Shown here in pieces: positions 11,036 to 45,109 of a stretch of DNA of 64,000 nt (position 1 is the stretch's first letter; each line of letters starts with the position of its first letter). Below the pieces are notes generated by a model. The model did no database searches and was not told the DNA's origin. It worked only from the letters and a program-made list of their open reading frames with translations. This stretch comes from Dudresnaya verticillata. Lineage: Eukaryota. The position numbers were made by a program, and so were the translations under genes. The stretch spans positions 1,736,001 to 1,800,000 of the forward strand of contig OZ374562.1 of NCBI GenBank assembly GCA_977862235.1, in the 5' to 3' direction.

Positions 11036-13335
11036 ATGCCGATGTTCAATGGCATGCAGGTGGCGGCGCCCTCGGCCGCGCCGGTGTACGCTTCGCCGGT
11101 CGACTTCGTCGGAAAGAACCCTCGCGATCACGCGCATTTCCTCGCGCGGGCCCCCTTGTTTGACCAGGAGGCTTTGCGCGAGGAGGAATTGGTCGTTCAT
11201 TACGCTACTAGCGGTTTCTTGCCGGGGGGCCTGCCCCTCGGCGTCGTCTGGACGTTGGAATGGAAGTTGCGCTGTGCCGTTCCTGCGGAATGGCTTTGGG
11301 TGCGAGCGGGACAATCGCGTGCGGACGTCCACGCGCAGTTCGTCTCAGACGTGTATCGTCGCTTCACGCGTTATCCGGGGCCGACGTTAACGCCGCCCCT
11401 GTTCAATTATGATGCGGGACAATACCGCACAGTCGGCGAAGCCGAATATGGTGCTCGTCTCGGGACGTTATCGCTCAAACATGTGAGCGTGTCGATTGAA
11501 CCCCGTGTGTTGGGAGAGGCTTACCTATTAAGCGTACGCTTGAAAGCGGATTTCCGTTACTTGCATCGTACGGGTACGTTCTTTTGGGAGCGTTGTATCC
11601 GGTGGGATTGCGAGACGCGTCGCCGAAAGGGCGTATTCGTACCTTACCAGGACATGCAGGTCGATCGCATTAAGCGCAGTAAGTTACCCTTCTGTTTCGT
11701 GAAGGTACCGCCTGTATGGCGAGAGTTTGAGATATGCGAGGGTTTCTCCGTAGAGCTCCCTCCGTGTGTCACGTATCTTGGTTCCGAGGTGATGACCGAC
11801 CCGTATTCCAGGTATTGGATCGTGTTTTACACGGAGTGGGTCGCCAATGTGGCGTATGCGTGGTTATGGGAGGTGTATAGCACCTTCCGTATGTACCATC
11901 TACCCCCGCGTGTGGTGGCCCAGCTTGGTAGCCTCGACTTGGTCGGAATATTTGGCGGTTCCCGGAACGCCGAAGAGTTCTGGAACCTGCGCGCTGTTGC
12001 GGATGAGATCGATTGGAACGACCCGGCGATGGTGCCGTATGCGAACAACCGCCGTAAGGCGAACCGTCCGCGATTCGCGATGAGTCGTACTCACTCCGCC
12101 TGTGGCGATTGGATCCATTGTAATCCATGGACTAAGCGTCGTACGACGAAGAACGTTGCGGAGCGCCATCGCAAAACGGACCGCCTCACCCCGGGTAATC
12201 ACCCGCGTGGTTTGCGTAAGAGTTGCGACTTTGTCGGTGCTTTTCCTCCGCATTTGAGTGCCTTAATGGCCGAGGAGGATGCGTTTAACGCCGATGGCGA
12301 ACCAGGGAACCCGTCTGGGACGGATATCGCTATACGCCTATGGCGGTTGAGTCGTCTTCCGAGCCTGCACCCGCGCCTTCGGCTTTGCCCGGAGGTTCTG
12401 TCGGTGGCGGTGGAGTCCCAGATGTCCTGCCAGCTATTGCGCCTCTGGACCTTGCGGCTCCCGTCGCTGACGATGATGGCGATGCCGTTATGGCGACGCC
12501 AATATTTGAGTCGGCTCCGCCGATCGTAACGCCTCAAGGCGAAGTATCAAACTTCGTAGACGGTTCAGGGAGTCCAGCTTCGGTGCCGGTTTGGACCGAA
12601 GAGCAGCGCTGCACCGTGCTTGCGTTATTGCAGGCTGCCGGCGTCGCTACTAGCGGTCTAAGCGGCTCACCCACTGAGTGGATGAGCCAATCTTTGTCGG
12701 CTGCGGTTCCACCTCAGGGTAGGCCCGCGTCGAAGTCGACTAGTGCCGTAGGTTCTGCGTCGAAGGACGGTGTGGCAGAGAAGCCTTCGTCGCCTAAGGC
12801 GAATGGTCCGGCGTCTAAAGACGTGAGTATGGCTGTACCGCCTGCGGCGAGCGAAGCGAATGCCGCTATAGCGTCGTTGACGGCTCCGAAGGGGCCAGCT
12901 GCTCCTGCATCATTGACGGGTGTCGGATTAACAACGCCGAAGGCGAGTGAAGAGGCGACGCCAATCGAGGCGGTTTCTGAACTAACGCCAAAGGCGGTCG
13001 ATGAGTCGTTGACTGCGCTTAAAGCGGATGGGGCTGTGCCCGCGCCTAAGGCGAACGATAGCTTGAGCTCTGCGCCTATGGCGGGTGTTGTTGCTTCATC
13101 GCCTTTGGCGGATATTGTCGCGACGACGCCAAAGGCGATTGATAAGTCGCCCCTTTCGCCTGCGGCGCCTGTTGCGGCCACTCCGGCTGTTGCAGTGGCA
13201 AGTCCTTTGCGGTCCGCCCCGGCTCCTGCCGTGAGTGTACCGTCGAAGACGGAGGACGCCCTCTACGAAGAGGCGTTGCGTGAGTCCGCCGAAGGCGTTG
13301 CTGAGGATGTGCCAGCCGATTCGTCTGGGGCGTAA
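11036..13335 (+). CDS. Antisense extra ORF of C1 (unknown conserved domain plus Ala/Pro/Ser-rich tail; one inferred frameshift near 12330)
   Basis: ORF 10988-12529 (first ATG at 11036) overlaps ORF 12340-13335; homologous to the antisense ORF of element C2. Confidence 0.75.
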
Positions 13336-14633
13336 GAGTCTTGATGTCGTTTCAGGAACGGATAGCGGACGCGAGGGTGCGTATTGTGTTGCCTTCGGCT
13401 CCCTTGCGGGACCGATGAGTGGGGTATTCCCCTTCGTCTTTGACGATTAATGTAGCTGTAGTGGTCGATCGCTAGGGCGAGGGGTTGTCCCCATTTGTTT
13501 TTAGCCCGGTAAACTTCGGCCATTGTCAGCGTCTTTTCGTATCGCGTTTCACGTTGGTCTTAGGGTGTAACCTGTGATTCCCGTTCGACTTTGCGTCGTG
13601 TTCTTGATTGCCCGCTACAGTAGCGTTGGCGTTTGATGCCTTTAGCCTTGGTCGTGCGTTGCGCTTCAGCTGTGTTTGGCTGGTAGTGTCCGCTGTAGTG
13701 GCGTTGTTCTTCGTGTTTCACGTGCGGCTGTTGGCGTATTTCCGCTGACTTAGCGTTTTTGTAATGCATGTGTCGCACTGCGCCTTGGGTGTGGTTTTTC
13801 GGGTCACTGCGCCTCGGGCGTGGTTTGTCGGCGTCCTCGACGAGAGTCGCGAAGGCGGTGAGGTAGGTGTTGACGCCTTGGCGTTGCCGCCCTTTTCGTC
13901 TTCGACGCTCCTCCTTGGGGGTAGGGTAGGGTGATCTGCGACCGCGGCGGCCGCGGGCAGCGGCGGAGTCGTTGGCGATTTGTTGGCGCGTCGTGCACGG
14001 AACCCACAGCAACTGCGTCTTCAACCACCTTCCCCCCCTTCGGGGGTGGGTTTGTCGGTGCGCCCCTTCTTCGGCGAGTTACGTCGGAGACGTTCGACGG
14101 GTGCTTTCGAGCGAGACCGTGGCCGGCAGTATCGCGGTCCCAGGGACTTGGCCGTGGGGCGAGTGCACGTCTCGACGTCGGAGACGGTTGTTGTGCGCTA
14201 CCACTTACGCCTGTCGTCGCTGGGGCTCGTAGCACCTGCTCAGCCACTTGGTATGATTGCGTTCGTCGTGCGTTGACGGCGGGGTGGTGCACGCGGCCGT
14301 GTTTAGAAATTAAAATTTGACCAATTACTTCCTCCTAGTACCCGAGTGGCGCGGGCGGCGGATCTCGATTTGCGATCTGGATCCACTGTCAACAGCGCAC
14401 CCATCCAGAGGTTCCGTATGGGGGCTGCTACGAGGTGTCGTGCGCGAGGCTGTCTATGACGCAACGACTTGCGTCCGCGTTCGTCCATGGCGTGCATACG
14501 TGTTTGGCGCTGTCGCTCTGGCGACCGCGTCCACAGGCCATGGGTTGGGATTCCGCGCCTTTGGCGATCGTAGGGCGAGCACGCGATCTCGATCGTCCGT
14601 CCATTCGCTTCCAGCGGTATTTCCGGATTAGGG

Positions 14634-14903
14634 TTAGCCGCGCTGGGCGTCGTCGACGTTTGGCGGCAGCGGCGTACGTTTTCGACGGTGGTACCGTGTG
14701 ACGTGGGATCGCGGCAAACTGGAGACTGGCTCCCAGGTGTTCGCTGAAGCGGGGTATCCAAACCACTTGACGCGGCAGAGGATCTCATCATCATCCGCGT
14801 ACGCGTGCGACTCGATGCGTTCAATCACGTATTCTTTCCCGCTCACAGCGTTCGGCTTGTACGTGGGACTTTCCAGCGCCTTTGGTGGTTCGTCTCGTTG
14901 CAT
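14634..14903 (-). CDS. Integrase-associated chromodomain of C1
   Basis: EYVIERIESH...CRVKWFGYPASANTWEPVSSL. Confidence 0.9.
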   Translation of the reverse strand: MQRDEPPKALESPTYKPNAVSGKEYVIERIESHAYADDDEILCRVKWFGYPASANTWEPVSSLPRSHVTRYHRRKRTPLPPNVDDAQRG

Positions 14904-14992
14904 GATGGGCGTCTGTTCCGGTTCGGCGAAGCGTACTCGACGAGTTGATCGCCGAAGGCGTTGGCCTTGGGCCTCGGGCGCTCGATCAGCGG

Positions 14993-17400
14993 TTAGTGGG
15001 TGGTTGCGTCTTGAGACAAGTTCATCGCTTGCAACGCCATGCGTCGTGCTTGCACGGTTAACGTCTTCGTTATCGGACGCGATTCATTGTTCTCATTCGG
15101 CGGAGCCGTAGCGACGTGTTCCAAACGGGTGCGAACCCCTGGGGTATTGTCGTCGTTGGAGACGGATTGCGAAGCGCGGTCGTCGGGGTCGGCGGCGAAG
15201 GGCAAAAGCTCTGCCAACCCACGACTGCGTGACGTTGCGGTTATACGCTCCTGCGGATCTCCCGCAGTATGCGAAGTCTCTGCGTCACCCTCTGGGCTCG
15301 CTGGTGGCGTGTCGGGGGTAGTCGTCCCTTCGTCTTGTGACGTGGGGGCGACTGCGTCCTGCACCGCGGGCGGGCCTGGTGGGACGATGAGTGGAGGGGC
15401 CGCCTGACCCGGTGGGGCCGGCGCCCAGACCACGCGGTCTCGGGACAAACGTTCCCGCTCGTCACGTCCCTTGTCGACGGTTACTGTCTCTTTATCAACG
15501 TGAGTTACCCGATATGGTCCGTCCGCCACTGGCGCCAGCTTATGCTTACGCTCTGCGCGATCCGTGCTCCCGCCTCGGGCAAAGTATTCCTTGCGTACGA
15601 ATACGAAGTCGCTTACGGCGATTTTTTCCTTCGATTTCCTCAATCGGGTATCAAAGTTTCGTTTGTAACGTGCTTGAGTTGTCTCTAACGACGCTTTAGC
15701 GGTTCCCATCAGTGCGGCCAGCCAGGTTCGCCATTTGGTGTAGTATTGCCCCGCGGTGGGTACGCTTTCGAGCGACGGTTCCGCTTCAAGCGACAGTGGA
15801 CGTGGTGGCTTGGACAGCACCAATTCAAACGGAGCGAGATGCGTAGACGAATGCAACTGTGTGTTGTATGCGAACGTCAAGGCATCCGTGAACAGGTCCC
15901 AGTCTCTCGAATGATCCGCAACGTAGTGACGCAGCGAGGCCAGGATGGTTCGATTGAATCGTTCTACCTGGCCATTGCATTGCGGATGGTACGTCGTGGT
16001 GAAGAGATTCTCCACTCCCAAAAGACGGCAGATATCCTGAAACCGATTAGCCACAAACTGTGGTCCGTTGTCGGACAAACGTTTCTTCAGAGGGCCGTAC
16101 ACGAAGACCCAATGTCGTACAAACACCTTAGCGATTTCCAATGCCGTAATACTACACAGTGGGACCGTCCGGACCAGCTTCGAGAAGCGTTCCACAATGA
16201 CGAGTAGGAACTTGTTTCCTCGCTTCGTGCGTATGAGTTCGCCCAGGATGTCGATCGATACGAATTCGAGAGGCTCGGTTGCCGGGAATAACTTCAATTG
16301 CTTGGTGTTCTTTCGCAGCAATACGCGATTCTTAGCGCAGGTTACGCAGTTGCGGACGGTCGCATAGCAGTCCACTGGCATCGATGGCCAATAGTATTCA
16401 CGTCGAAGCGTATGATACAACTTACGCCCCCATGGGTGCCCTGCTAACTTGGCGTGGTGCCGGAGGTGGAGTAAGCGAGCGCGTAACGCGGAGGGTACGA
16501 CCACTTGTGGACGGACTTCTACTGTTCGAACCAACAGGCCCTGTTCATCCGTTGCGAACGGTAGGATGATCCCGTCATCCAGACGTTTCCTGAAATCGTT
16601 ACAGTATTTGTCATCGCCTTGGGCGTGTACCAACTCTTCATGCGTCACTTGACGAAGGAGTACCTCATTCGCCGGTGGCATGTTGTTGATCAACACTTGG
16701 TCGAACTCTTCGAACTCTCGTTCGGCGAAGTCGACCTCGCCTTCGGCGTCAGACAGATCGTCTTGTGACGTTTGATGGCCATCTTCGACGTAGCTTCCGT
16801 GGTAGCATGGTACATCATCGTCAATGGGCTCGACGGTTTCTCCCTTCGTCTGTAGACGAGAAAGGGCATCTGCCTGAGTATTCAGGTACCCCTTTTTGTA
16901 CTTCATGACAAAGTCGAACTCGGAAAGGCGAAGGCGCCACCGCATTAACCGTCCAGAGGGGTCGCTGATTGCCATCAGCCACCTCAATGACGAATAGTCC
17001 GTATGGACTGTGAACGACTCCATCTGGAGGTAAGGTCGCAGCGTCATGACGGACCATACTACTGCGAGGCACTCCTTTTCGGAGACCGAGTAGTTACGCT
17101 CTGGAGCGGTGAGCGAGCGGGACCAGAAGCCGAGTGGCTTACGCTCCCCGTCGGGCTGCGTTTGAAATAGAGCACAGCCGACCTGATACTCGCTTGCGTC
17201 ACAATCGACAGAATAGAGGAGACCCTGCTGTGGTAGCGCCAGTATAGGCGGATGAGTCACGGCCTCGACGAGCGTACTGAACGCTTTGGCTTGTGTCTCA
17301 TCAAACTGTTGTAACCGGAAGTCCTGTGACGACTCTATCTGCCGGTTGGTGTCATCGGTAACTAACTTCGGGCCCTCCTTCCGTGTCAGCACCCGAGGCC
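14993..17400 (-). pseudogene. C1 pol remnant: RNase H + integrase
   Basis: VDCDASEYQVG, FWSRSL, EKECLAVVW, ADALSRL, HAKLAGH..CVTC, VSIDILG, SDNGPQF, YHPQCNGQVER, GPY. Confidence 0.93.
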
Positions 17401-17451
17401 TAGGCCTCTCTTCGCGGTGCGACACCCCAGTGTCAGGAGTTGGTGCCCGAG

Positions 17452-20051
17452 TTAGTTTTTCGCCTGCGGCGGTGGTTGTGGCGCTACATAGCGATTGATC
17501 ATCGTCGGATGACGTTCTGCCACGTGCAGCATGGGTCCGCCTCGTGGCGATTGTGGTCGTGCAGCACGGCGAGCAGCGTTGCGGGTTGCGCGTTCCTTGC
17601 AACGTACATACGCATCAGCGGGGACATCAGCCTTCTCGGCTTCGGTTAGTCCTTCATAGTTGGTAATAACCTTCATGAAGTTGCTCATGCGCAGGAAGCA
17701 GTCCGGCGCGATGTGTCCGCGGGCGTAGCATTGGTGGCATACCAGCTGCCGACGCGCGTCTTGACGGGGCGGACCTCTGTCCTGCCATCCAGGCCTTGCT
17801 CGGTGAACGTGAGGGGCATACTCAGAATAGGGGACGCGTGGCGCGGGTACGACCGAGCGCCCAAAGTCGAGAGCGGGGTCCATATCCCTTGCGTCTTCGT
17901 CATCGAAGTAGCTGTCCGTTGGTAGAGCCGAGGTTGGCACCGACGCTTGCTCGTCTGCCAAGTACAGATCGCCTTCGGCGTGTGTTTCCATGTCATCGAC
18001 AGGGCGACTAACGTCTCGGAACTCGACGGAGGACTCCGCTATCATAGTGCGCGCTCCAGGCTTTGCGCATCTCGTCTGTGGACGCAGTACACCTCGGGCA
18101 TCGCCGATGGCGGATCGCGATGTGCGTACGGCTTGAGCCGGTGTCAGTAGGTCACGTCGTGCTGACGCGGAACCGGCCCTGCCGTGTCGTGCGCGGTTGG
18201 CATCCCCTTCGTCCTGTGCGAAGTGGACCAGCCGCTCAAATGACAGCTCCGCCCTTGGCGTTTCTTCGAAAGCGAGCGACCAGGGACCTGATCGACGGGT
18301 CTAACCCGTTGATGTACAGCGTCATCTTTTCCCAATCGGGATATACGTTACCGCAACGGATACAAGCGCTGGCTAGCCGCATCCCATAGGTCGTCTTGTC
18401 CTCGCCTTGCTTCTGGGCAGTCGACCGTAGGGCAAGGACAGCGTCCCTGATCGCCGCTGGCGTACGTGCGGAGGAGGTACTGTACCGCCTCCGGATACGA
18501 GGACACCCCGCCGCGATGGCGAGAAGACGTCGACTTGACGGAGCGGAATTGCGTGGCTGCCGTACCTCGCAAGAAGTACGGCAGTGCGACGAACGCTTGG
18601 GCTTCGCTCATCTCCAGCGTATCGGCTTCATCCGCGAAACGCGTCAGGAACTCCAGGACCATGACGGGGTCGCTGCCGTTGAAGGCGGCGTCCTTCATGG
18701 TCAGCTCCAGGCGCTTAATATGGTTCTTGAATTTACCCGTATCGCGCCCTGAGCGTTTTTGCCCTACGTCTTTGAGACGGTAAGTCCTGTACGATAATAA
18801 CTGATCGAAAAGGGGGTTGGAGGGGCGTAGCTCCTTCAACTCCTTGAACCGCTTTCCGCGAGGTCTTGCGGCACTGCCGAGAGCTGGGAAGTCGTCGTCT
18901 TCAGACGAAGAGTCTGACGACTCTCCGTCACTTGACGAGTCCGAAGAGGACGAGGATGAGTCCCCACTTCGATGACGGTTCTTCTTCCGTCTATGACGTA
19001 GCTTGCGGCGGCGTCTCTTCCGATCCTTGCGTCTGTGACGATCTTCGCACGAGCTCTCGTCACCCGACGGTGGACCGTTGCGCCACTTGGCGGTTTCGAG
19101 ACGCTCTAAGCGAGTCGCAAGTCGCTGAAAGCGTTCGCGTGAGCTAAGCTCAGAATGCGAATGAACCGTTACTGCCGGCGGTGATTGTGTACCCTCGCCT
19201 TGGGCGTTTTGGTTCGTCAATACACGGTCGAGATCGAATCGAAGCCCTTGTAGGGCGTCGTCCCGATCCTCTTCCAACGTCTGTAGACGACTTGCGATTC
19301 CTCCGACACTGTCGTCCAGTAACCCGGCGAACCTAGCGAACATAGCATCGTCTTCCAAGACGCACACCTCTCGGATCCGTTCGCGTGGTATCGTTAAGTT
19401 ACTCACGCGGACGGCCGAGGGTGACGCCGTTGGCGGTTGGCTTTCGCGGTTTGACCGGTCGGGCGTTCCTTGCGCCCTTTGGCTTGGCGACTTCGGCTTA
19501 GCCGGCGAACAACCGGCACTGCCGTGGGGAGTGGGACAACATGCCCCGTGTGCCAATGGGTCGTCAGCGACGTTGCGCTCCGCGGAGTGCCCTTGATCGT
19601 CGTTGACGGGGATGGTTGGTTGATCCGGAAGTTCCGGTTGTCCCTCGACGATGTCGGCTTGTGTTCCGTCTACGAAGTCCTGTTGCTCAGCTTGTACTGT
19701 ATCAGCCGAGTCAACATAGGAGTGGTAGGTGCGGAGGGCCGATCCCTCGGGGACTGAGGTGCGGACGACGACGGGGTTGCGCGTCGGCGGGGGAGGTAAC
19801 TCTCCTCCGTTGAGCGACGCGTGGGAGCCGGCGTGGCCGTGGCCCGGGGGTAGCGTTGGGAACGCCGACGCGATCTCGGGCTCACGAGGCGCCCAGACCT
19901 CGTTGTCATCCGATGTAGCGACCGTTCTGACGCGGGTACACTCCCAGGCGTCGAAGATGGTCTTCTTGAACTTGGGCCTCGCGACGGTGGCGGTCGTGAG
20001 GCCATGATGCAGTCGTAGAGTTGCTTGATCGTCGTGGACGATTAGCGACAA
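17452..20051 (-). pseudogene. C1 gag (frameshifted) with CCHC zinc knuckle
   Basis: ORFs 18348-20051 and 17452-18045; CHQCYARGHIAPDC; capsid region homologous to C2 gag (LSYRTYRL, FNGSDPV). Confidence 0.85.
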
Positions 20052-20112
20052 ACGTCTGAAGACGGAGAGTCGGACGTCGCACGACGGAGTATCTCGTTGA
20101 AACGTAGCACAA

Positions 20113-20130
20113 TTCTAGATCGGGAGACCA
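20113..20130 (-). promoter_or_regulatory. Primer-binding site of C1
   Basis: TGGTCTCCCGATCTAGAA, 2 nt after the LTR end; complementary to a tRNA ending GGGAGACCA (tRNA-Tyr-like by inference). Confidence 0.75.
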
Positions 20131-20132
20131 GA

Positions 20133-20985
20133 TGTGGTGCAAAGGTCTGTGGCGGTATACCGCCGAGCAGTTCGGGGCTCGGTGGTTAGCTGCGCCCTTG
20201 GCGGTGAGTAGCCTCGCCTTGGGCGGCTTGTGGTAGAGCAGAGGACACGCCTTGGGCGGACTGTAGACGCCCGAGGCGAAAAGGAAGGGAAAAGGAAACA
20301 GAAAGGAAACACGTCAAGGACGGTGATAGACGTGGAAGCACGGGAGGTAGACGCTTGAACCGTAGGCAGCGGTAGGATACGCGCGTGCGGAACGGGGAAG
20401 TCTGGACCAAGGCCGGCTTGCCCGGGCGTTTACTGCTACGTCTGGGACGGCTTACCTAAGTATAGTTCGGCGGTGCGGTGGCGGCAGTGCGTGTGGGTAG
20501 CGCGGGAACTCGGGACACGTGTCGTCCCGGGGCGCGTCTGACAGATCACCCATCGCATGCAGCCGCGCGCCTGACAGGTTGCCGCACAACCCCCCTGTGT
20601 GGGTGCTTACACGCCCACGTGGACGCGTGTGCCTTACAGCCGTGCGCAGCGCGTTCCCATCCGGATCGGGCCAGCAATGCGAACACCCACAGCCTTACAG
20701 GCGCGTATCTTACAGCTTACGCGATCCAGATAGCCAATCTGGATACCGTATCCGGATCCCATCTGGATCCGTATTACAGTGCCCCGGGGCGCCATGTCGG
20801 CTAATCACCGTACAGTGCCCGCGTGGCGCGCGGCGCGCAGTGTGCGCGCGCGCCCCAGTGAGCCGTCGATGACGTGTTCGCGCGCCAACGGCGGTGGTGA
20901 GCGCCGGTGGCGGTTTCTCCGTCGGTCGACGTATTTGTTGCTGCCCGCTTTCAGCGAAAAAGGGCTCACCCCCCCTTGCACCACA
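20133..20985 (-). repeat. 5' LTR of C1 (family A)
   Basis: TGTGGTGCAA...TTGCACCACA; direct repeat of 9657-10546. Confidence 0.95.
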
Positions 20986-21068: not shown

Positions 21069-24000
21069 TGATAAATGTTGAGGAGTTGGTTCTCTAGTTT
21101 TGTTTGTCTATCTCTCTCATCTCTACAATGCGTGAGGCAATTTATACAAATCTTGTCACTAAAGTATCGTCAAGTTTTTAAGACTAAAATGGGAACTCCT
21201 TCAGTTGGGTACTCACGAATTCGGTTGTTGTCAAATTCGTGTACATCCCGATTAAGGACGCACCTCCGTTGTTACTTATTTTGACATTCCCCCTCATCAT
21301 CAATTGTCAGTATCGCGGAGTCCCATGGCTTGAACAAAATAGATGTGCTTCTTTGAGTTGAACGACTTGGTCATGATATCGGCCACTACTTCGTTGGTTG
21401 GAATGTACGTCAGTTTGATAGTCCCATTCTGAACATGTTCGTGAAGATAATGAGACTTGACGTCGATGTGTTGGAACGTTCGTTGCATACGTCATTATTT
21501 GCTAGCTCGAGGGCACCTTGGTTGTCACCACGGATAAGTACCTGAATGCTACTAGACTGGGCAGTGCCAGACTCGGATAAATCCTGTGAGGCCGGATTGC
21601 TTCCCGAACCGTATATGACATTTCAACATACTCAGATTCCACAGTAGACTGTGCTACCGCCTCCTGCTTCTTACTACGCCAGGATAGTGCTCCACCTGAG
21701 CTTTGGAACATAAATCAACTCACTGATTTGCGTTTAATGCGGTCAGCTGCGAAATCAGAATCTGTATTGCCAAAACTATATACTTCTTGTTTGTTGCTGC
21801 TGCGGTTGTACACGATTCTCAGGCGTTTAATCTTTTTGAGATAACGTAGAAAATGCTTCGCAGCTTGCTAATGAATCATCAGCGTGTTATGCATGAATCG
21901 GGAAAGGAAAGATGTATCAAAAACAATATCCGGGCGAGTTGTGTTTGCCAAATATAGCAAGGCGCCAATCAGCTCGCGATACGGAACAAACTGCATACGG
22001 CGATACTCCCCTTCGTTACGAGACCCCAGAATGGATGGAGAGTCTAATATCATCCCCGGGGGATCGGGACGTCGGCTGTACGGCATTGCGACATTCCAAA
22101 CTTCTCAATCAGCTGTCCAATCATTAATTCGCTGTAAATCTTCAGCGTCCCAAGCTTAAGGTTACGTTCGATACGAATTCCCAGAAATTTCGTCGCGTCT
22201 GCCTATACTCGAATACATACCTGTGCGGCTATACGGTCTGCGAAGGTGCGAAGTTCGCATAGAGATGGTCCTGCGAGTAGCATATCGTCCACATAGACGA
22301 GTAAGTAGATGTATTTGTTCCGGATGCGGAGAATGTAGAAACTTGAATCAGATTTCGATTTCGTAAATTCTAAGGCAGTGAGGAATCTATTCACGACACG
22401 GTGCCATGCTCATGAGGCTTGTTTCAGTCCGTAGAGGGCTTTGAGTAGACGATAGACCCATTGGGATCGACTAGAGTCCACAAAGCCTTCCGGCTGTTCC
22501 ATGTAGATTATTTCTTCAAGTCCACCATTCAGGAAGGCTGCCTTTACATCAAGTTTCAGAAGTGCCAAATATTCATCCGTAGCGAGAGTCAGTATGAAGC
22601 GGACTGTGGAGTACTTGGCAACGGGGGAAATGTCTCGGTGAAGTCAATTCCATTTTGTTGAGTGAAACCTTTTGCGACCAAACGTGCGCGACGACGAGGC
22701 AGACGTCCCTCGGCATCTAACTTGTTCATATATACCCATTTTCTCTTGACTGCCTTGGCATTGGAGGGCTGCCGTTCTAGAAACCAGGCCTTATTATGAT
22801 TGATTAATCAGTTTCATTCTGCATTGCTTGGTTCCATTCTGGTGAAAAGGGTCCGCTGATGGCCTCTCGATAAGTAGTTCGAACGGTGGTGTCTTCATTG
22901 CCAAGACGTACATTCAAGGCAATGGAGGTGAGATCAGCATTGCGAGAGGGGGCCTGGATGGCAGTCCTGAGCGGGTGACATTGGGAAAACGGGTAAGCGT
23001 GTTGGGGTCACGATCTGCGTTTGGGCCGGTAGTGGACGTATCTTGCGCATCATGGAATGAATCACTGTCCTGTTCCGATGAATCGTCAGAATCTGTTCTA
23101 TTGTCGGAGTCAGTCTCGGTGTCAGAACCACTAATTGGGTGAGAATCAGTAATGGTACCAGGGTCTGAATCTGAATCGATTTGTTGCCTGTAGTTACCAG
23201 TCAGGTCGAAATAAGTACTGGTAGAGTTTTGAAGCCCTAAAGAAATATCATGGTAAGTAGCTGGAGCATGGCGATGCGTGGTCTCATCGAAAGTTGCATC
23301 GTGAGACGTTATGACTTTGTTCTCCGCTCGTATGTAGACTTTGTAGCTGGTGCCCTTGTCGTACCCGAAAAGCACTCCAGTCTTGGCACGCGGAGCGAAC
23401 TTACCAGAACGTCGTTGTGTCGGGATGTGTACGTAGGAAATGGCTTCGAACTTGCCAAAGTTGGAAACGTCGGGGCGCTCTCCAACAATGACCTCATACG
23501 TCGTCTTGTCAGGGTCCGAGCAGGCAGACGTGAACAACTGGTTTCGAATGTAGGTGGCGGTGTTCATGGCCTCAGGCCACAAACTTTGATACACCTTGAT
23601 GTGAGCTAATTTTTGCATAAGTGTTCTCGCTATGTCCATGAGGGTGCAGTTGAGACGTTCTGCTTTCCCATTTGATTCCGGTGAATACGGATCACTGCGT
23701 TCATGGATGATATCCTTGTCAGCGTGACATTTCTTGAAGGCAGTAGACAGAAATCCCTTGCTATTGTCAGTTCTAAGGCGAAGGACGCAAATGCGCGGGA
23801 TGTTTCCCAGAAAGATTGCTTCCAGGTCTAGAATCATATGCTTGACGGATGAAAAGTTTCCTTCTTTGTAATCATGAAGCGAACGAGTGATAATGCACTG
23901 GAGTCATCGTAGAGCGGAATGCAGTAGGGTGTACCATTGAAAGAAGGGTCACCAACGGGTCCGATGATATCAACGTGTACTAGGTCCAACGGATTCACTT

Positions 24001-30107: not shown

Positions 30108-30109
30108 AG

Positions 30110-33303: not shown

Positions 33304-34023
33304 TGTGGTACAACGGGCGGTGTCGCCCTGTAAGGAGCCACGTGGACACGAGTCCTCTGTAAGGAATGGCAGGCGCCAACCGCCCGGATATGGCTGGCTT
33401 ACAGATTGATTTAATTGCTGAAGCGCTCCTTCGCAGTAAGGCGCCCCGTGTACAGCTTTAATCTACAAGGCGCATTGCTCCAGATGATATGGCATTATGC
33501 TATTTGGGGATTAACTATGACCGCATCATCGCGCCATGCATTGCTGGCGAATGTTTGCCCCGCGGCGCCTGACAGTGACACCGCGCTCGCCTCATGGCCT
33601 GACCACTCATTCCTATCTAAGGACGTATCATAACTGTATTGTACAGTATTAGCTAAGTATTAGCATTAGAACTCTAACTGAGCGAGCAGCACCTTTTGCT
33701 CTCGCCGTATTTATGGGGCCCCTGAATAGCAGGGGCCCGGCACTAAACTGGCAGCAGTCTGTGCCTTGGGTTTTCCCCTTTCTGGATACTTACGGTGCTA
33801 CCGCTACAAACCCCCTTGGGCATCTACAAGCCCCGTCGTCTACGACGAACTGCTCTACACGGCTGAGTTCGCCTTCCCTTTTCCCCTCTGCTTAGGGCTT
33901 TAAGCCCTATCAAGTCTCTACCAAACCCCTTTACCGAGCTACCATCTACGCAGTGGAGTATCTTCTAAGACAGCTGTCTTGTTGTGTTGTTGTCCTCGTT
34001 GACTTAGAAGTCATTCTACTACA
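33304..34023 (+). repeat. 5' LTR of C2 (family B)
   Basis: TG...CA termini; followed by the PBS; homologous copies at 30110-30764 and the split inverted copy. Confidence 0.9.
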
Positions 34024-34424
34024 GTGGTCTCCCGGCCTAGAACAAGTTCTCAGGGTCGGACCCTTTTTCTACATTACCCTCGACGGGCCAAATCAAGAGA
34101 TTCAAGACAGGTCGTAACGTCCGTTGAAGTCCCAAGACTTGGAACATCGAAGGGTAAAACCCTAGTCGTCTAATTGTCGACGGTTTCTACGCTTTACAAT
34201 AAGCTCCGGAGTGACGTCAAATCTTGTGAGCAAGCAAACTACATTTAACGGTTTTAAAACCGTCCCCAGAAGTGTCCCTCAACGGCGGATTGACGCTCGG
34301 GTTGAGCCCGCTTCAACAGGTTTTCCGTGCAACCTGAGAAAACACGTGTAATCCTACGGTCCTCGACCGTCGAGAAGCTTGGTAAGAAGTCCCCGCTACC
34401 TCATCGGCAGAGCCGAGAAAAATA

Positions 34425-36875
34425 GTGGCAATAATGCCAACTTCTAATGGCGATACTACCCGGCCCGGACTATCGAGCCGGGGAGCAAGCCGCACAGGCA
34501 GTATTGCCTCCGCGAGAACTACGAGAATTCGCACCCTTGCAGTGACCACCGCTCTCGCAGTAAATCCCCTAACGGGTGGTCCGGGACCCCCGCTTCAAGC
34601 GACGGGCGCCCCGGCCGGAGAAGGAGTACCTGGCCCAAATGGGGACCAGGTCCCAGAAGGAGAGAACACGGTGCGAACCGCAAGAGGAGTCCCCGGTGAA
34701 ATCGGGGAGAATGAGGGTTCGAACCCTAGAATGTTGCTGCCATCGATGGCCCTTGCCAGTGTGCAAACCGAGGGCGGACCGGCCCTAGAAGAAGAATTTT
34801 TGGCGCCCCCGGACGTGGGGATGCCGACAAAAACGAAGTACAATTCGTCAGACGTCCGATGTTTCACCGAGGGAGAAATCGGACGAATGGTCGAGTTGGG
34901 AATCGAGCGTTCCTTGAAGACAAGTGTCGTGGTGCTCCTGGAAAGTCAGGCCGACGAAACCTTTCCAAAGGTCAAGAGATATATCGACGAGGCGTCGGCG
35001 CGCCGTGACGACCGTCCTTTGGCTAAGCGCCAACAGGAGATGGAATCTCGATTTCGGCAAGGTCCTCTTACAGGATTAGAAGAAGAGAGGGTCGAAACCC
35101 TGCAAGCGCAAATGGATTCACTAGGTGACCAATTGGACGCCGTCCATGGAAACCTCCATACGCTTACAAAGGTCACCGACCTAACTCTAGAAGAAGCTAT
35201 ATTGGCTATTGAAGACGTTCGACGAAACGTAGACGACACCAGGTGTGTTGAACAAGAAAGAGCTATTGAGCTCCTGAGGCAGGAGCTTGAAGTTGAAAAG
35301 CGGAAGGTAACGTTGCTGGAAGCAAAGATGCGACGACTCAGTCGCGAGAGGGATGTAATCCCTGAGGTCGAGCGCCGACGCTCCCCCGTACCCCGTGGCA
35401 CGAGGGACCGTCGCAGGACGTCTCCAAGACGTGATTCGGATGGGGAGTCTGGACAAGACGACTTTAGTCGTAGGAAGTCCACGCACCCCCGGTGTGATTG
35501 CCGATAATCGCACGGTCCCACTGTATGTCGGAATACACGGGAATCCAGTCAACACCGGCTTTCAAGCCGCAATCATGAGGGGCAGCGTCGAAACGCCTCA
35601 TACCCAGCGCCGATGCAATCGGATGAGGACGAGCCGACGTCACGAGGTCTTTCAAGACCCTCCTGGAGCTCCTGTCGAGGACCGCGTCGAGCGGGAATTA
35701 TGGAGTTAACTCCACGAAACCCGGCGTTCATACAGGTACATTCGTATCGGAGATACCGATTATTGAATTTCGATTCATATCGTGGGCCCGAGGTAACGGA
35801 AGCCACCTCGAAAAGATCAAGCAGATTAAATCCGTAATGAGGAGTCGGCGATTCGATGGGAGGGACCCAGTTTCCATCATAGGCTTTCTAGCCACCTTGA
35901 ATAGACAGTTGGACCAAGCCCAAGTGAGCGAAGGAGCGGCCATCCTGGTCATACCTGAATTCCTTGAAAAGGACGCGAAGGACATGTTCGAAGCAAATTT
36001 CGACGCGGCCGGAGACGACAATGGCGGATTCAATGAGTGGCCCGAGGCCATAAATTGCCTCTTACGGACTTACGCCAAAGACGTTTACATTGAACGGATT
36101 TCTTCTGAAATGGATACGATGAACCAAGGGTCAGAGGAAGACGAAAGCTCCTTTTCAAGACGCCTACAGAATAAGGCGCGAAAGGTCGCGGGAGTCTACT
36201 AGGAACAAGACTTGATAACTAGTTTTTTACGCGGGCTTCTACCAGCGGTGAAACCGGTTCTAAGTACGTCCTCTCTGGACCCACGCTCCGCGCGACTAGC
36301 CGACTATGTCGAGTTAGCGACAGCTCAGGGAGATTCGCACCGTGCCCTTGCGGGTGGTGCTCGTCTCAAGAAGGCGAGCTCCTCGCTACCTCGCAAAACC
36401 CTGGAACGGGTCAAGACACACAAGTCAGGACGAGCGCTCCTCATTCGCCAAAATAGGACTCAACGGTCCTCAGACACCGATTCCTCGAAGAGCAGCAGTT
36501 CTGAGGCCGACAATGAGGATGCAGTGGGTGCAGCCATTGGTCACGAAGCGCCTCCGTCCAGCGTAACCCAATCAGACTCGTGGTCTGCCACGTTAAGCGA
36601 CCACCCAAATCATGGCGATGTGGACGCAGTCCTTCAGAACTACAACCACAGGATGCCTGCGTGGGCTCAGCCCACAAGGACACAACGTCCCGGTTGGGTG
36701 GCTGTCGAAGACAGACCAAAGTGGCATATGCTTCGAGTGTCTGGGCGTGGGCCATAAAAAGCCGAATTGCCCATATCTGGCTCGTACGGATGAACCTTCA
36801 TTTGAGGTACTAAAACGCCAGCAGTTTTACCAACTGTCTCGCGAACAGAAGGCATGGTTAGCCACCGTAGGGTGA
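34425..36875 (+). pseudogene. C2 gag (fragmented) with CCHC zinc knuckle
   Basis: ORFs 34425-35507, 35837-36202, 36212-36757; CFECLGVGHKKPNC. Confidence 0.85.
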
Positions 36876-37349
36876 CTACCTGATTTCGTCCCGGGGAATA
36901 TCCGTAGGGAATAACCCGACTATGCGTCGTCAGGACGTGGAGCAGGGCCATCGAGGGGGCCTTCTCAGAATTTGGGATCTGCCCCAAGCCGAAATGGCCA
37001 TGTCCAATTTCAAGGGGGACTGAATCATCCAGTGGACACTCCGAGACAGCCGCCGACGGCGCCACGGTCGCCAAGACCAGGCTCCAGAAGCCTTCCGCCG
37101 CGTCCACCGCTTCCGCAGTCGCCTGCTAGTAGGCCGAAAAACTAGCAAGGGGGAACCGGTTTCGGTCCACTGGGCGACTCCAGTCGTATCGGAACCCCCC
37201 GATCGCTCCAAGGAATTCCATTTCCTATGTCCTCCCCCACTCAAACGATCGGTCTCGCGGAAACTCCCGCTCCCTCTTCCAAAGAAGGTTTTAGCACGCC
37301 CCGTGGGCTTAGCCCCGGGGTGCAAGTATGATGAGTACATTAAGGACCC

Positions 37350-40300
37350 AGTGTGAGCGCTATCGAGATACAACTATAAAGTTGTCGCTTCCGTTGGGAC
37401 CTCTGTTGACAATATGACTCAAGTACTTTCAGTTCTGGACACGGGCGCAGGCCCCAATCTCATTAGAGCTGACGCGCTCTCTTTGAACGACCGGAAGAAG
37501 GTTTCCTCGACCCAGTCGATCGTCAACCTCACCTCGGCATCAAGCCACCGCTTACCAACATTAGGAATGATCTCACTCGCCGTCAGGATTGGAATCTACA
37601 CGGTCCGTCAACCCTTCGTCGTGGTTTCGGCGCTAGCCGTCGATATGATTCTAGGATACACCTATATCGATAGCCACGTTGAACAACTTCGAGTTCGTAA
37701 GCAACACGTAGTCTTACGTGACGGTTCGGTACATCCCATTCTACGACGACGATGCGGAATCCCGAGAGCCACACGCTCTGGCGAAACCATGGAGGTCCCT
37801 CCACTAACTACTTCGCGCCTCGTACGAGTTTCTCAAACAACTAACTTACAGCCCGGTTCTGAAACCTGGGTCGCGGTATCCTGCACCGCTAACGGCACAC
37901 ACTTATTGGATTCCTTCCAACGTCTCTACGACCGTCAGCAAGTGGTCGTCACGAATGGAATCGTCAAGATACAAGAGAACGTTCTCTTCCGTGTTAAGAT
38001 CGCTAACTTCTCTCCCCGCGTGCAACGGTTAACCAAGAACCAAGTCATTGGTCGCGCCGTTCCCGCTCCTACGGCCACGCCGGTTTATACTCTTTCCATC
38101 GCCGATGTCCACGCCAATACGGACCCGAAGCCACAGTACTTGAGTCCTCCTGCCGATACATCGTTCGATGCAGAGGGGCAGGGCTAGCTGCTGCTCTTGG
38201 CGCGGCCAACTCCAAAGTAGACGTCAAAACCGCCACTGAGAACACAGTCGACGAATGGGAATTAGAACACCTATGCCCGTCTGACAGACGCCGCGTTCAC
38301 AAAATGTTGCGTCCTTTCGCCGACATGTGGAACGGGAAATTAGGGACCATCAAGGTCACGGAGCATCGCATTGAGCTCACAGAAGGTTCCAAACCTGTAT
38401 TCGCACAACCCTATCGTTCAGGACCGAAAGCGCGACAAGCGGAGCAGGAAGAGGTCGATGAGATGCCAAAGGAAGGGGTCATAGAGCCAGCACGCTCTGA
38501 ATTCGCAAGTCCTGTAGTACTGGTTAAGAATCGTGACGGATACCTCCGGTTCTGTGTCGATTACAGGAAACTGAACGCGATTACCATCAAGGATTCTTAT
38601 CCTATACCGCGCATGGATGAGTGCTTGGACTCGTTGGGCGACGCCCAGTATTTCACCACCCTCGATTGCAATTCGGGCTACTGGAAAATATCAGTTGCGG
38701 CTGAAGATAAGCCCAAGACAGCGTTCACCTGTCATGCTGGTTGCTTTCAGTTCTGTCGAATGCCATTCGGATTGTGCAACGCACCTGCGACGTTTCAACG
38801 AACGGTTGACATCCTATTGTCGGGATACGGATGGAAATCCTGTCTCGTCTATTTGGGTGACATCATAGTCTTTTCCAAGAGTGTCGACGAACACATAGGC
38901 CACATTCAAGAGATACTCTCTATATTGAAGCAAGCAGGCGTATCGCTTCAGCTCAAGAAATATAATTTCTTTACAAAGAGTGTGGAATACCTCGGGCATT
39001 TGATCCGACCAGGGCTGCTAGAGGTGGCTACCAAAAACACCCAAGCTATCGAAGGTTTCAAGGAGCCTACGACTCAGACACAACTAAGGTCGTTTATTGG
39101 ATTGTGTAACTTCTATAGACGCTTCGTACCGAATTTCGTTAGGGTCGCGTCTCCTCTTAATAGACTTCTACAGAAGGATGTTGGGTTCAACTTACCCCCG
39201 TTTGATGAACGGCAACGCTAAGCCTTAGCCCTGTCGAAGAAGGCCCTCATAGCGCCAGCGATCCTCCGACTCCCTAAGGAAGATAGACCTCTCTCGGTAG
39301 ATACCGACGCGTGTGATTATCAGATAGGGTGTGCCCTTATGCAGATGGAGCCAGGAGGCACACGCCACCCGATCGGTTTCTGAAGCCGAGGCCTGACCCA
39401 GGCTGAACGGAATTATTCCGTTGGAGAAAAGGAGTGTCTCGCTGTAGTCTGGGCCACACAAAGGCTCAGACCGTATTTGGAAAGGTCGCATTTTGACCTC
39501 TATACCGACCACCAAGCGCTCAAGTGGATGATGAGTATGACTGAAGCATCAGGTCGCCTAGCGCGCTGGCGCTTGCGACTCTTGGAGTACGACTTCACGG
39601 TTCAATACCGTAAGGGAAATAAGAATCAGATAACGGATGCCGTCTCGCGACTGTCCACTTATGGATTCACCAGTTGGGAACCGGATCTAGAGATCCCTTG
39701 CTTCCTTATCGCCGACAGCGAGCGCGAGGGCTTTCCCAATCGTCCTTCCGAAGGAAAAGCGAGAGCCGACACCGAGCCGCGACCTTTGGAGGTTTGGGAA
39801 GTCGAACCCGAGGACCAATCAGCCGAGTTTGAATTCGAGGATGAGCAGCTGATAGCCACTGTGGTTGAAAAGTAAGTGGACGACAAGAGTCTATCTCTGA
39901 TTACGGTGGAAGAAATACTTCGCACGCAATTGACAGATCCATTCTGCAAGGGTTTAAGCTTGCCATCGAAGCTGGAAAGCCAGGCTGTTACCTCGAAGAC
40001 GAAAGGGGACTTTTAGTCCGACCGTCTTACATCGACGAAACCTTGCAGGTGGTGATGCCTCGGGTCCTTCAAGAACGGGTTCTACATCTGGCGCACTATC
40101 CCGAGATGGCAGGCCATCCCGGTGGCACCAGAATGTATCATAACTTGCGCCGACAGGTCTACTGGCCTGCTATGGCTCTCGCAGTATACGCGACCGTTCG
40201 AAATTGTGTCAAATGCGCTCGGGAACGAGTCCAATTACGACAACATGCTTCGCATATGAAGCTGTTCCCGGCTACGATGCCGTTAGAGTTCGTGGGGATT

Positions 40301-41712
40301 GACATCCTAGGACCGCTACCCCGATCGAGCAAGGGTAACGAGTACGTTCTCGTAATAACCGATCGCTTCTCAAAGCTCACCAGGGCTGTCCCATTGAAAA
40401 CGGTGACGGCTCATACCGTGGCAAGAGCGTTCTGCGAACATTGGGTATACACTTACGGACCTCCCCGCTATGCGTTGTCGGACAACGGCCCGCAGTTCGC
40501 ATCAAAGCTCTTTATAGCCGTCTGTGGCATACTTCGGATCAGGAATCTGTTCACGTCTACTTACCATCCACAGATGAATGGACAGACCGAGAGGTTTAAT
40601 AGAACCTTGTTGACTGGGCTGACACACTTCATCTCCGATAACCAGAAGGATTGGGATGAATTCACGTCGGCTTTGACGTACGCGTAAAACACGACCGTTC
40701 ACCGCGCGACGGGTCTCGCGCCCGTTCATCTGGGTTTATCTAACCCTCCAACGTCCATTATAATGGAAAAAGCCGAGATAGTAGACGTTGACAACGTTCC
40801 AGCGACTAACGTGAAAAAAGGCTGATTACCCGGCTCGAGAAGCCGGTGGATACAGCGTTACCACGCCTGCGGATGGCCCAACGACGATATGAAGTCAACT
40901 TCAACAATTTTATGCGCCTGACTAACCAGAACGTTCGCACAGACCAATGGGCATTTCTCGAGAGAGAAACGAAGATGAAAGACGCCAAAGGCGTGGCTCG
41001 AGACGGGAAGTTGTTTCCGAAAGCCGTAGGCCCCTTAAAGGTGCTCGAACGAGGAACACACACCATCGTTCTACAAAAAGCTGGCGAAAAAGAGTTGGTC
41101 TCTTTGGATCGCGTAACACTGGCCCCTTCACCAAACGATGAGCTCGGCGCTCTTGGGCAAGAGCCCCCTATCGTGGGATCTGGGCCTGACGACGCGGAAC
41201 CAGTAGACCCACCCTTGAGGGCAACGACCCCAAATAACATCTATGTTGAAAGAGCGCCGGCTCAGCCCGACGGTGAGTTGTTAGAAACGATGGTCGAGGC
41301 CGCAGATGCGCCGACTGTCTCGCCTCCACGGCGAGAGACCGATAATATCGATAACGACGCTGGCCCGGTTTCCATAACCACACCCGCTCGTGAGGTTCTC
41401 ATACCGCCTGGATCCGGCGATCGCGCGGCAATGGTATCCAAGGGCAATAGCCCCCCTCGGCCTGATGACGAGCCAGCTGCTACAGAAGCCGACGAGACGG
41501 CTCCCCACGGTAAGTTCTCACGCTTCAAGAAAGCTCCCCCTCGGGAGTATGTTTATGACAAGTTAGTCGGCTACGACGCAGAGTCGGAAATGTACAAGGT
41601 AAGCTGGTACCAGTGCCCTGCCTCGCAGGATACGTGGGAACCACGACGGCATCTCCCGGATAACTTAGTCAAGCGGTATCACCGTAAGAAGGGGATCCCC
41701 CTTCCCGCCTAA
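37350..41712 (+). pseudogene. C2 pol: protease, RT, RNase H, integrase, chromodomain
   Basis: VLDTGAG; FCVDYRKLN, MPFGLCNAPATFQ, YLGDII (YLDD mutated); EKECLAVVW; GHPGG..CVKC, SDNGPQF; EYVYDKL..YKVSWYQC..DTWEP. Confidence 0.95.
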
Positions 41713-41905: not shown

Positions 41906-42050
41906 GGAAGGTTCAAGACCTGTGGATAGATGAAATGGATAGATGAAACAGAAGGTTCAAGACCTGTGGATAGATGAAATGGATAGATGAAATAGAAGGT
42001 TCAAGACCCCTGGATAGATGATATGGAAGGTTCAAGACCTTGGATAAGTT
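41906..42050. repeat. Minisatellite (GAAGGTTCAAGACC..TGGATAGATGAAAT units, ~30-44 bp) in the C2 spacer
   Basis: Four visible copies of GAAGGTTCAAGACC. Confidence 0.85.
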
Positions 42051-42850: not shown

Positions 42851-45109
42851 TTAAGCGGACAATAGGTCGATGACCTCGTACTCCTCAAGCGGAGGGTTAG
42901 GCTGCGGAGCCGAGTGGGAAACCACTACGCGACGGACCTCGCGCACAACGCGACGCCCTCGACCAAGTCGACGACTACCGCGTTCGTGACGCGATTCCAC
43001 GTTATTATCACCTCGGCTTCCCGCTCTCGGCTGGTCGATTTCCATCGCATCCACACCTTGAGCCGTCGCGGGAACACCGGGCTCCACTTCGTCCTCTTCT
43101 TTGACGACTAGCTCTGTTTTCACGACCACGTCGTCCCGATCAACTGGAGCCTTCTCGGTCTGGGTCCCCTCTTGAGGATGAAGGGTTATGGGCTTGGAGC
43201 CTTCGTTGCCAAGTGCAGCCGATTTCGATCCCAAAGTCGGGTCTGGTGCACTGTGCTTCATCTTGGTTTGAGAGCCAGTAGGTGGGCAGTCTTCGCCCAA
43301 GAGCTTCCCTGAGGGGACAAAGCCGGCTAACGATGTGGTGGGAGTTTGAGGCGTCACCAACGAGGCGCCAACCTCCTGCTGAAGGTCTCTCTCTACCGGC
43401 TTTGAGGCCGAAACCCCGCCCTTCACCACCGTCGCCGACGATTCCTCCCGTGGCACCATTGCCATGTCCTCGCTCGTCTGAGCACGAGGGTCAAGCCCGG
43501 CGACGCTGGTCGACTCCATCTTGACTGATGACACCCCAATATGACCTATGCCACGACGTGGGGTAGGATCGGCCTTAATGGCGCGTTTGCCAAGTGGCGG
43601 GAGGGACGCGAAGTGAGCACGAAGGCGCTTCATCTGGTCGACAGGACTAGGCGTCCTTATCCACTCATTTTCATAGTCTATCATGACTTCTTCAACCCAG
43701 TCTGCAAGGCTGTGTATGTTCAAGTGACGAAAGTCCCAGTGGGCGAAGAGGCGAATTGCCAGACCACGTCTGTTGAAAACATCTCGGATGAACTGGTCCG
43801 CCTTCGCATACGCGGATGCAGTTGGTGCATGAGGCCTCTGGGCCTGGCCATCAACGGTGCTGTCAAATAGCGGGACATCGTCCGGCGTCTGCGGCCCTGG
43901 CTCACGCCATTTCGCACTAACCCAACCAGTGGTGACGCCGGTCATACAAATGCCTTCGTCGAGAATGAGAGGGCTCTCCTCAGACGGCGCCGGCTGTATC
44001 ATATAGTCGGGCAAAACCGGATGCCACTTAAGGGGGTCAAAGTCAACCCAGTCCCCAGGGTCATAGACCGGTGTGAGATGCCCGGTATTCTCAGGAAGGT
44101 GGCGGTTACGCTTGGAGATATTACTCCACCGGATGCGCTCCACAAAACACAGTAGGGTTTCCAAGTCCTTGGCATCGGCGGCATCCCCCGTCAGCCCCGC
44201 CAGGCCCAGAGCCCTAATTGCTATGCGGAGGGGCTGCCCGATGAAGAACAACAGGCCTCGTCGGGCCTCGTAGACAAAGACTTGGGCCACGAGAACCACC
44301 CACTCGTGTCTGAAGATGCTTCATAGCACAATGTCGTCCATGGCCTTCGCCATCATTTCCAGTCCCAGGTATGCCACGATAGTCGGCACACCCACTGGCA
44401 TGCAATAGGACACTTCATAGTCCTTGTGGTCGTCGGGCACCAGGGGATACTTCCCATTATAGAATTCAGGCTTGATAGCTGAGACTTCCTGGCAGTGGCA
44501 GGGCGCCAGACATCCCGTCTTATGACGCTCACGAAGCTCGAAGCGTACAAACTCTAACGGCATCGCCGTCTGGGGATTGTATAGGGCATACTTCAAATTT
44601 GAAGATTCATCCCACCGCACGACGCGGGCGAGGGTATAGGGGAAGTTATCCCTCCCGACACGAATGAGCGGGCGTTGGTGCATCACCATGCGCAGGTCCC
44701 AGTCCCCCTTTTGATATATTTCTTCCAACATGATAGCCTCCGACGTGTGCTTCTGAGCTAACTTGTTGCTCCAGGGCACCTCGTGCCTAAACCGCACGTA
44801 CGCGAGGTCCCCTTGCAGAGTGCTGGCGTCGCGATCTAAACGGGGAAGGAAACGGTTCATCCCCGTGAGGGCGCTCACCCTAGCCCACATGAGGGAATTC
44901 CACACCCGGCTCTGCGCCACTCGGCTGCCGCGGCGGCGAATCTCTTCGCGACTGGCCCCCGCGCGCACCTTAAGGCGGGCAAGGTCGGTACGCAAGAGCC
45001 AGTCGCGGCTATACGAGACAACCCTCGGCACCCCAGCCGCATCTACTTCGTGGCCTAGCACATGGGCACTGGACACAGCGACCCCATAGGCGAAACGTGG
45101 CGGAGCCAT
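42851..45109 (-). CDS. Antisense extra ORF of C2 (752 codons, one in-frame TGA at 44321-44323)
   Basis: ORFs 44321-45109 and 42851-44299 are in the same frame; the stop aligns to a Trp in the C1 homolog. Confidence 0.75.

Follow-up and report, generated by a model that had tools for sequence, protein, structure and literature searches.

An antisense accessory gene family and element-wide short DNA dyads in two chromodomain-bearing Ty3/Gypsy elements of Dudresnaya verticillata

What could a long open reading frame (ORF) running antisense to gag and pol do for the long terminal repeat (LTR) retrotransposon that carries it? Two Ty3/Gypsy elements, C1 and C2, raise this question in a 64,000-nucleotide stretch of the Dudresnaya verticillata genome (assembly GCA_977862235.1, contig OZ374562.1, positions 1,736,001 to 1,800,000 of the forward strand), the whole of which is called the window here and numbered from its first letter. 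Both elements carry an antisense accessory gene, which belongs to a protein family with a predicted globular core. Both also carry an excess of short perfect DNA dyads that is confined to the elements, has covarying arms and includes an array of 11 sites directly before the start codon of the C1 gene. A preliminary description of the window dealt with the gene; the dyad excess in both elements lay outside it and is new here. We propose, at a probability of roughly one in three (0.35), that the product of the accessory gene recognises the dyads on integrated DNA as marks of self, promotes or protects expression of the element and regulates its own gene through the leader array.

As first described, both elements have the gene in the interval that separates the integrase chromodomain from the 3' LTR, in antisense orientation to gag and pol, and they have different LTR families (blastn between their LTRs gave no match) and diverged gag (33% identity over 97 aa). 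The description of one intact ORF of about 750 codons in each did not survive. In C1 (minus strand), the gene was resolved on the plus strand into a first frame at 11036–12529 (497 aa; conserved core at about aa 11–395, to about 12220) and a second at 12289–13335 (348 aa stop to stop, forming a low-complexity, dyad-rich tail), which overlap in different frames in the ORF listing; the break may be biological or an assembly error. In C2 (plus strand), the gene spans 752 codons on the minus strand (42851–45109) and is split by an in-frame TGA (44321–44323) inside the core, giving 45109–44321 (262 aa) and then 44320–42851. The disordered tails ascribed to both proteins were recovered as low-complexity tails. 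With the C2 stop read as X, the two proteins matched at a BLASTP E value of 9e-11, and Smith-Waterman alignment of the first 400 residues scored 127 (2000 shuffles: mean 36, max 66; local shuffles 67), recovering in order the colinear blocks quoted earlier; the homology is thus beyond chance. A hidden Markov model (HMM) built from 50 relatives, with both window proteins left out, scored C1 at 368 bits and C2 at 101 bits. The strand opposite the gene contained 15–30 stops per frame, so the accessory frame is no shadow of another gene. The accessory gene is therefore real, ancient and of an unnamed family, and both copies in the window are broken. Within the C1 tail (12530–13335) the repeated xPKA is the translation of CGCC-NAA-GGCG dyads, 12 of 14 of which share one reading phase, and the DNA motif may thus shape the sequence of the tail protein.

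The family was detected by a full HMMER scan, word-index protein searches having given just 0 and 1 relatives. Using C1 residues 1–400 as the phmmer query against 1.84 billion representatives, we recovered 404 clusters at a cut-off of E ≤ 1e-3, of which 161 still passed at 1e-10 and 38 at 1e-30; the sources of 20 clusters that were looked up were ENA, Logan and JGI assemblies. The core of about 385 aa was covered in full by 51 of the 150 cluster proteins listed, with a median core identity of 30% (range 19–57%) and 25 columns conserved at ≥85%, mostly R, E, D, W, Y, P and G. C1 kept 21 of these columns and C2, which sits on a long branch, 14. To judge from this conservation, the protein is under long purifying selection. 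The longest protein among those listed had 893 aa; those listed gave no sign of a fusion to pol, and none of the 51 members scanned had a credible Pfam domain or a fused host domain. Searches with the accessory protein in Pfam, PHROGs, NCBIfam and PDB sequences likewise gave nothing credible, and the earlier view that it is neither env nor any named family holds at this HMM level. DNA encoding homologues was also sought in viral, metagenome and prokaryote collections, where the domain was encoded at none of the pattern loci (0 of 11 and 0 of 4).

AlphaFold2 predicted a compact, mainly helical core (pLDDT 93.3, pTM 0.91; residues 163–395 alone, pLDDT 94.8). Foldseek returned no match to this model at E ≤ 0.001 in PDB and BFVD, and the best VIA-align hits reached Z 2.5 both for the whole core (rmsd 3.7, 60 aligned) and for residues 163–395 (rmsd 3.8, 86 aligned); such negatives in PDB and BFVD do not prove the fold new. 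The core was rich in Arg (10%), Trp (3.6%) and Tyr (4.3%). Beyond the core, a second helix pair of about 35 aa was apparent, with 35 of 57 tails exceeding the best of 1140 shuffles and 33 scoring at least 18 bits. C1 fell below the shuffle-derived threshold, its second-frame tail giving a weak trace of the pair, and C2 gave no score. We take the pair to resemble HeH/SAP, for which the profile support was weak: HeH (E = 0.18) and Ish1 (E = 0.21) appeared below the cut-off in one of 23 tail fragments, a fragment chosen for this presumed resemblance, and PDB gave no support for a likeness to HeH, SAP or LEM.

Perfect 4–5-bp dyads occurred at about twice the expected frequency in C1 and C2, also when the expectation came from synonymous codon shuffling. 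In a scan of all 4-bp half-sites with spacers of 0–14 (3840 patterns, Bonferroni-corrected, C1 counted with one LTR), C1 stood out for CGCC-N3-GGCG (37 vs 1.2 expected) and CGTC-N3-GACG (26 vs 1.4; both P < 1e-19), followed by CGTC-N4-GACG (17 vs 1.4), CGGC-N3-GCCG (10 vs 0.6) and CGCT-N3-AGCG (9 vs 0.5). Over the whole window, CGTC-N3-GACG occurred 35 times, of which 29 fell in C1; shuffles gave 1.7. The corresponding pattern in C2 was AGGT-N5-ACCT (6 vs 0.2), partly derived from a tandem repeat. No pattern was significant after correction in the Copia element, the Gypsy element at 1–6 kb or the 26–31 kb region, and host DNA was enriched for CGCG-N2-CGCG alone (13 vs 2.1). Synonymous shuffles that kept the protein fixed placed all ten C1 and C2 coding segments above the null (z 2.4–6.3) versus none of seven control segments (z −0.5 to 1.5), at spacers of 3–6 that were picked after an earlier look at dyads in the same data.

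The arms of these dyads covaried, strictly so across at least five different half-sites. Among CGxC half-sites, 78 pairings were with the arm's own complement and nine with another CGxC, and the two kinds of mixed CGCC/CGTC pairs numbered 0 and 2 compared to 63 perfect sites. This diagonal arm matrix ruled out a degenerate half-site model with CGYC on either side. The excess in C2 was broader, with 177 perfect 5-bp stems with 3–6-nt loops (expected 57 ± 8), and its G·T-variant stems were about equal on the two strands (observed vs expected, 81 vs 65 and 101 vs 81). Arm preference differed between the elements, being CG-led and 4 bp in C1 and GG/CG-led and 4–5 bp in C2. C1 dyads rarely extended past 4 bp (7 of 65, where the flanking composition predicts about 16), and the loops were without a consensus. 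The pattern S-G-N-Y-N3-R-N'-C-S', derived from the same data and hence post hoc, was perfect in 97 of the 184 C1 frames, 40 of the 124 C2 frames and 6 of the 137 from host DNA (chance rate, 1 in 16), and its density tracked the element borders, save for five sites at 1001–2000 in the 3' region of a distant Gypsy element. In a solo LTR of a C1-related family (31486–32414, minus strand, 71% identical, target-site duplication TGCAC), positions aligned to C1 dyad arms were conserved in 76 of 85 cases (89%) compared to 568 of 735 (77%) for other positions (P = 0.008). The literature searched, with Repbase and GyDB outside that search, yielded no description of this gene or of such dyads in red-algal Gypsy elements.

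The most regular dyads preceded the C1 antisense gene. This leader array (10751–11033) consisted of 11 perfect dyads, alternating between CGCC-N3-GGCG and CGTC-N3-GACG about 25 bp apart, and represents a degenerate repeat of about 50 bp whose last site ends 2 nt before the antisense ATG. The arms were invariant, loops and spacers had diverged, and one expected site near 10801 was degenerate. The C2 antisense-gene leader (45110–45420, minus strand) comprised three degenerate repeats of about 78 bp, read by eye. Contiguous 7- and 8-mers were not significantly enriched in either leader.

Together, these data are the basis of the proposal made above. The accessory protein would bind the dyads on the integrated element and thereby switch the element on or shield it from silencing, while the leader array would probably let it act on its own gene, for which transcription from the 3' LTR side is proposed. 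Recognition would be the work of the accessory protein, not of Gag, integrase or some host factor, the dyads would be read as DNA, either as such or as an extruded mini-cruciform, and the effect of reading would be activation; the tail helix pair may, as a weak lead, tether the protein to chromatin. Besides the conservation of the family and the dyad excess, several points were counted in favour. The excess is chiefly of perfect Watson-Crick stems, and the C2 G·T variants are even between strands, which fits DNA as the form read. Element-specific dyad preferences go with diverged C1 and C2 proteins. The densest and most regular array abuts the antisense ATG, the arms are better kept than other sites in the related solo LTR, and VANC motifs and Grande gene23, described below, offer precedents.

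A number of observations weigh against this proposal. Gene and DNA were both available for just two elements, so the dyads may follow the reverse transcriptase (RT) lineage rather than the gene, and strict arm covariation is a signature of base pairing that a plain dimeric reader of double-stranded DNA would not need. C2 is without a dominant dyad sequence and has spacers of 3–6, and in C1 the folding z was lower on the plus strand (−0.77 vs −0.32; paired difference −0.44 ± 0.23). The net charge of the core is neutral (−0.9 per 100 aa), a motif resembling a nuclear localisation signal occurred in the extensions of only 9 of 51 members, and both gene copies are broken, the C2 copy with its 14 of 25 conserved columns. 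The sites of VANC, an accessory protein of VANDAL DNA transposons, are non-coding and not palindromic, whereas the C1/C2 dyads run through coding DNA. CpG dinucleotides were not depleted (observed/expected 1.31 in C1 and 1.07 in C2), and the C1 LTR pair differed by 7 transitions versus 14 transversions, no sign of methylation pressure. The lack of CpG depletion suggests that any silencing countered is probably not cytosine methylation and argues against a methylation-erasing role. H3K27me3 has been reported as a silencer of transposable elements (TEs) in Cyanidioschyzon.

Another possible account is that the dyads are unrelated to the gene, with Gag, integrase or some host factor as their reader, or arise from a lineage-specific reverse-transcription bias that corrects palindromes, and that the accessory protein is a particle, nuclear import or integration helper. 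The dyads also cover gag and pol, the examined elements are two related ones only, and capsid proteins of some RNA viruses read dispersed stem-loops, all of which would suit this account. It is countered by the position of the densest, most regular array, which adjoins the ATG of the accessory gene itself, and by the little or no dyad excess in the Copia element and the other Gypsy element. Moreover, a mutational bias would lengthen stems regardless of sequence, but extension beyond 4 bp is depleted in C1 and CG-led arms alone stand out.

That the accessory protein instead reads hairpins in single-stranded RNA or cDNA of the element, aiding export or packaging or protecting against RNA silencing in the style of Rev and its response element, appears unlikely. 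Arm covariation does imply pairing, the dyad 13-mers have predicted folding energies that average −4.1 kcal/mol for RNA and −3.2 for DNA, and the abundance of Arg and aromatic residues in the core would suit an RNA reader, as would the slight plus-strand excess of G·T stems in C1 (6-bp stems, 45 vs 30 ± 6) and the lower folding z on that strand. Tolerance of G·U pairs was nevertheless small, as the scarcity of CGTC/CGCC cross pairs shows, C2 had no strand bias in folding z (0.08 ± 0.27), and a consensus among the loops is missing.

We consider it improbable that the gene is a mobile red-algal TE accessory gene or captured host gene, such as PAG1 of Plavaka, that rides several kinds of element and is not specific to Gypsy. 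PAG1 is a red-algal TE gene without a detectable domain, and PAG genes move between TE families, according to bioRxiv 10.1101/2025.02.11.637652; in addition, genomic context was seen for few of the 404 homologue clusters. This idea has to contend with the same position and orientation of the gene in two elements with unrelated LTRs, and with the lack of host-domain fusions in all 51 members. Furthermore, 2 of 13 homologue contigs (≥6 kb) were identical in size to a contig carrying a close RT relative (21,947 and 6,678 bases; null mean 0.03, P ~0.0005, using 119 of the 120 listed RT matches), which is indirect evidence of a Gypsy context. It is scarcely credible that the gene encodes an env-like membrane protein or that its frame is a product of chance: the position is that of env and 9 of 51 cores had a hydropathy window ≥1.6, but the orientation is antisense, no core reached 1.9 (0/51) or held a strong hydrophobic helix, the model is globular and the opposite strand is full of stops, so that both ideas are largely refuted.

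Both elements are chromodomain-bearing Ty3/Gypsy elements. Their integrases are 55–57% identical and each has a chromodomain (Pfam Chromo, above cut-off). In C1, which lies on the minus strand, the 5' LTR (20133–20985; flanks AATGA / AATAT, an imperfect target-site duplication) and the 3' LTR (9657–10546), a TG...CA pair, differ by 21 substitutions in 841 aligned sites, with 64 gap columns. They are accompanied by a primer-binding site (20115–20130, starting TGGTCTCCC, likewise in C2) and a polypurine tract assigned from sequence (10550–10558). Between these lie gag in pieces (17452–20114), RNase H-integrase (14993–17614; RT and protease absent) and the integrase C-terminus with chromodomain (14637–14993, E = 5e-8), which is out of frame with the integrase core. 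In C2, on the plus strand, the primer-binding site (34025–34040) is followed by gag and protease-RT-RNase H-integrase-chromodomain (34434–41712), interrupted by stops and frameshifts; this domain order is that of Ty3/Gypsy, and the best PDB match of the RT was Ty3. A 44-bp tandem repeat in the spacer between pol and the 3' end (41907–42046) carries GGT-N5-ACC dyads, and a polypurine tract (45659–45671) precedes the 3' LTR (45672–46330, right end approximate).

At its 5' end, next to the primer-binding site, C2 has a fold-back LTR of 1125 bp (32899–34023), in which inverted arms of about 400 bp (94% identity; 381 matches in 405 aligned sites) enclose an inverted U3 segment. The match to the C2 3' LTR was limited to the U3 segment (231 of 266 sites) and did not include the 5' R-U5, so C2 may be rearranged or chimeric; with these rearranged ends, no target-site duplication was found. 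The fold-back could give hairpin RNA against the R-U5 of its own family, and a 32-bp self-complementary stretch (46297–46328) lies near the presumed end of the 3' LTR. Organism-named RT relatives among the 120 listed were from Chondrus crispus (69%) and Agarophyton chilense (54%). The earlier proposal of a selected accessory gene in an algal chromodomain-Gypsy lineage thus stands on the 404 clusters, core, fold, chromodomains and red-algal RT relatives, while its term chromovirus is suggested by the chromodomain, the sole basis for that label; chromodomain Gypsy lineages outside chromoviruses exist (PMC12477816).

The remaining window contained further elements and host genes. A Copia element that served as a dyad control (21069–25617, minus strand, 216-bp LTRs, 87% identical) is inserted 83 bp past C1, and the more distant Gypsy at 1–5110 (minus strand; integrase about 25% identical to C1/C2) had no match to the accessory domain. 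Inverted partial copies (72–78%) of a third related LTR family lie at 29370–30800 and 31174–32898; near 29385 the minus strand has a primer-binding site that starts with TGGTCTCCC. The solo LTR and C2 both interrupt one of these LTR copies, and an LTR end near 30764 is 70% like the C2 R-U5. Host ORFs, all on the minus strand, encode an 853-aa protein (55594–58155) that joins a triose-phosphate-transporter-family domain to a weak, below-cut-off resemblance to polysaccharide pyruvyl transferase (E = 0.001) and possibly acts in cell-wall galactan modification, a La-domain protein (47170–48015), a 326-aa protein with an N-terminal membrane anchor and no Pfam match (6782–7762), and a 473-aa protein with no credible Pfam match (58600–60021). 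A 55-bp self-complementary stretch occurs at 9080–9134.

By position, the gene belongs with the antisense aORF-3R genes, and it works like them. Examples include maize Grande gene23, rice RIRE2, the Retand TRP28 ORFs and Botrytis Boty (PMC7264820; PMC11963269), the last likewise listed among antisense aORF-3R carriers in PMC7264820. Gene23 is nuclear and has its own promoter, and what such antisense ORFs do for LTR retrotransposons has yet to be settled (PMC7264820). The C1/C2 genes share with this group their position, orientation, a long region between pol and the 3' LTR with tandem repeats, and conservation across diverged elements. They differ in their unrelated domain, likely red-algal host and chromodomain-bearing elements, as well as in the element-wide perfect dyads and the array before the ATG, neither of which is described for aORF-3R genes in the available parts of PMC7264820 and PMC11963269. 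A relationship to Retand TRP28 or the plant mobile domain was rejected at the level of sequence profiles, 0 of 51 members matching PF04195 or PF10536 at E ≤ 0.05. The plant mobile domain (PF10536) is a non-canonical domain borne by Gypsy and MULE elements and linked to gene and TE regulation (PMC9289625); the C1/C2 family is likewise a non-canonical Gypsy-borne domain, unlike it in having no Pfam match among the 51 members, again at profile level.

The dyads give the comparison with VANC real substance. Both are TE-encoded accessory proteins with a conserved and a variable part, and in both cases short family-specific motifs have accumulated, partly via tandem repeats, as reported for VANC motifs in PMC5735166. 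The host here is an LTR retroelement and not a VANDAL Mutator-like DNA transposon, and the C1/C2 motifs are covarying palindromes that also occupy coding DNA, without CpG depletion and with no Pfam family for the protein. The parallel would concern a possible mode of action, not membership. Within red algae, the accessory genes PAG1-3 of Plavaka come closer. PAG3 has inverted repeats in tandem arrays next to it and has been proposed to bind such repeats in its own element (bioRxiv 10.1101/2025.02.11.637652), which would make it a closer conceptual precedent than VANC. The Plavaka genes come from EnSpm, Mutator and Zisupton elements, unlike the C1/C2 gene, and PAG2 and PAG3 have methylase, SET, ParB or 2OG domains that were not found in the C1/C2 family. 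PAG1, which like the C1/C2 protein has no detectable domain, could be identical with this family, the two having been compared by description only. The same source describes red seaweed chromatin as unexplored.

In C1 and C2, an antisense extra ORF is paired with a candidate target: the 11-bp dyads are defined, an array of them precedes the C1 start codon, and the protein exists in hundreds of natural variants. Even without a link to the gene, it has to be explained why dyads are under selection at synonymous positions over the whole length of the elements. Our boldest suggestion, offered tentatively, is that a red-algal Gypsy lineage encodes an antisense protein of new fold that recognises short perfect dyads, as mini-cruciforms or hairpins, throughout the element and even within its codons, with an operator-like array placed ahead of the gene's start codon, in a manner that would be VANC-like but symmetry-reading and diversified into hundreds of family-specific variants. 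If true, it would provide a new nucleic-acid-binding fold and an opening onto TE control in red seaweeds, and sequence-directed self-recognition would extend from DNA transposons to retrotransposons.

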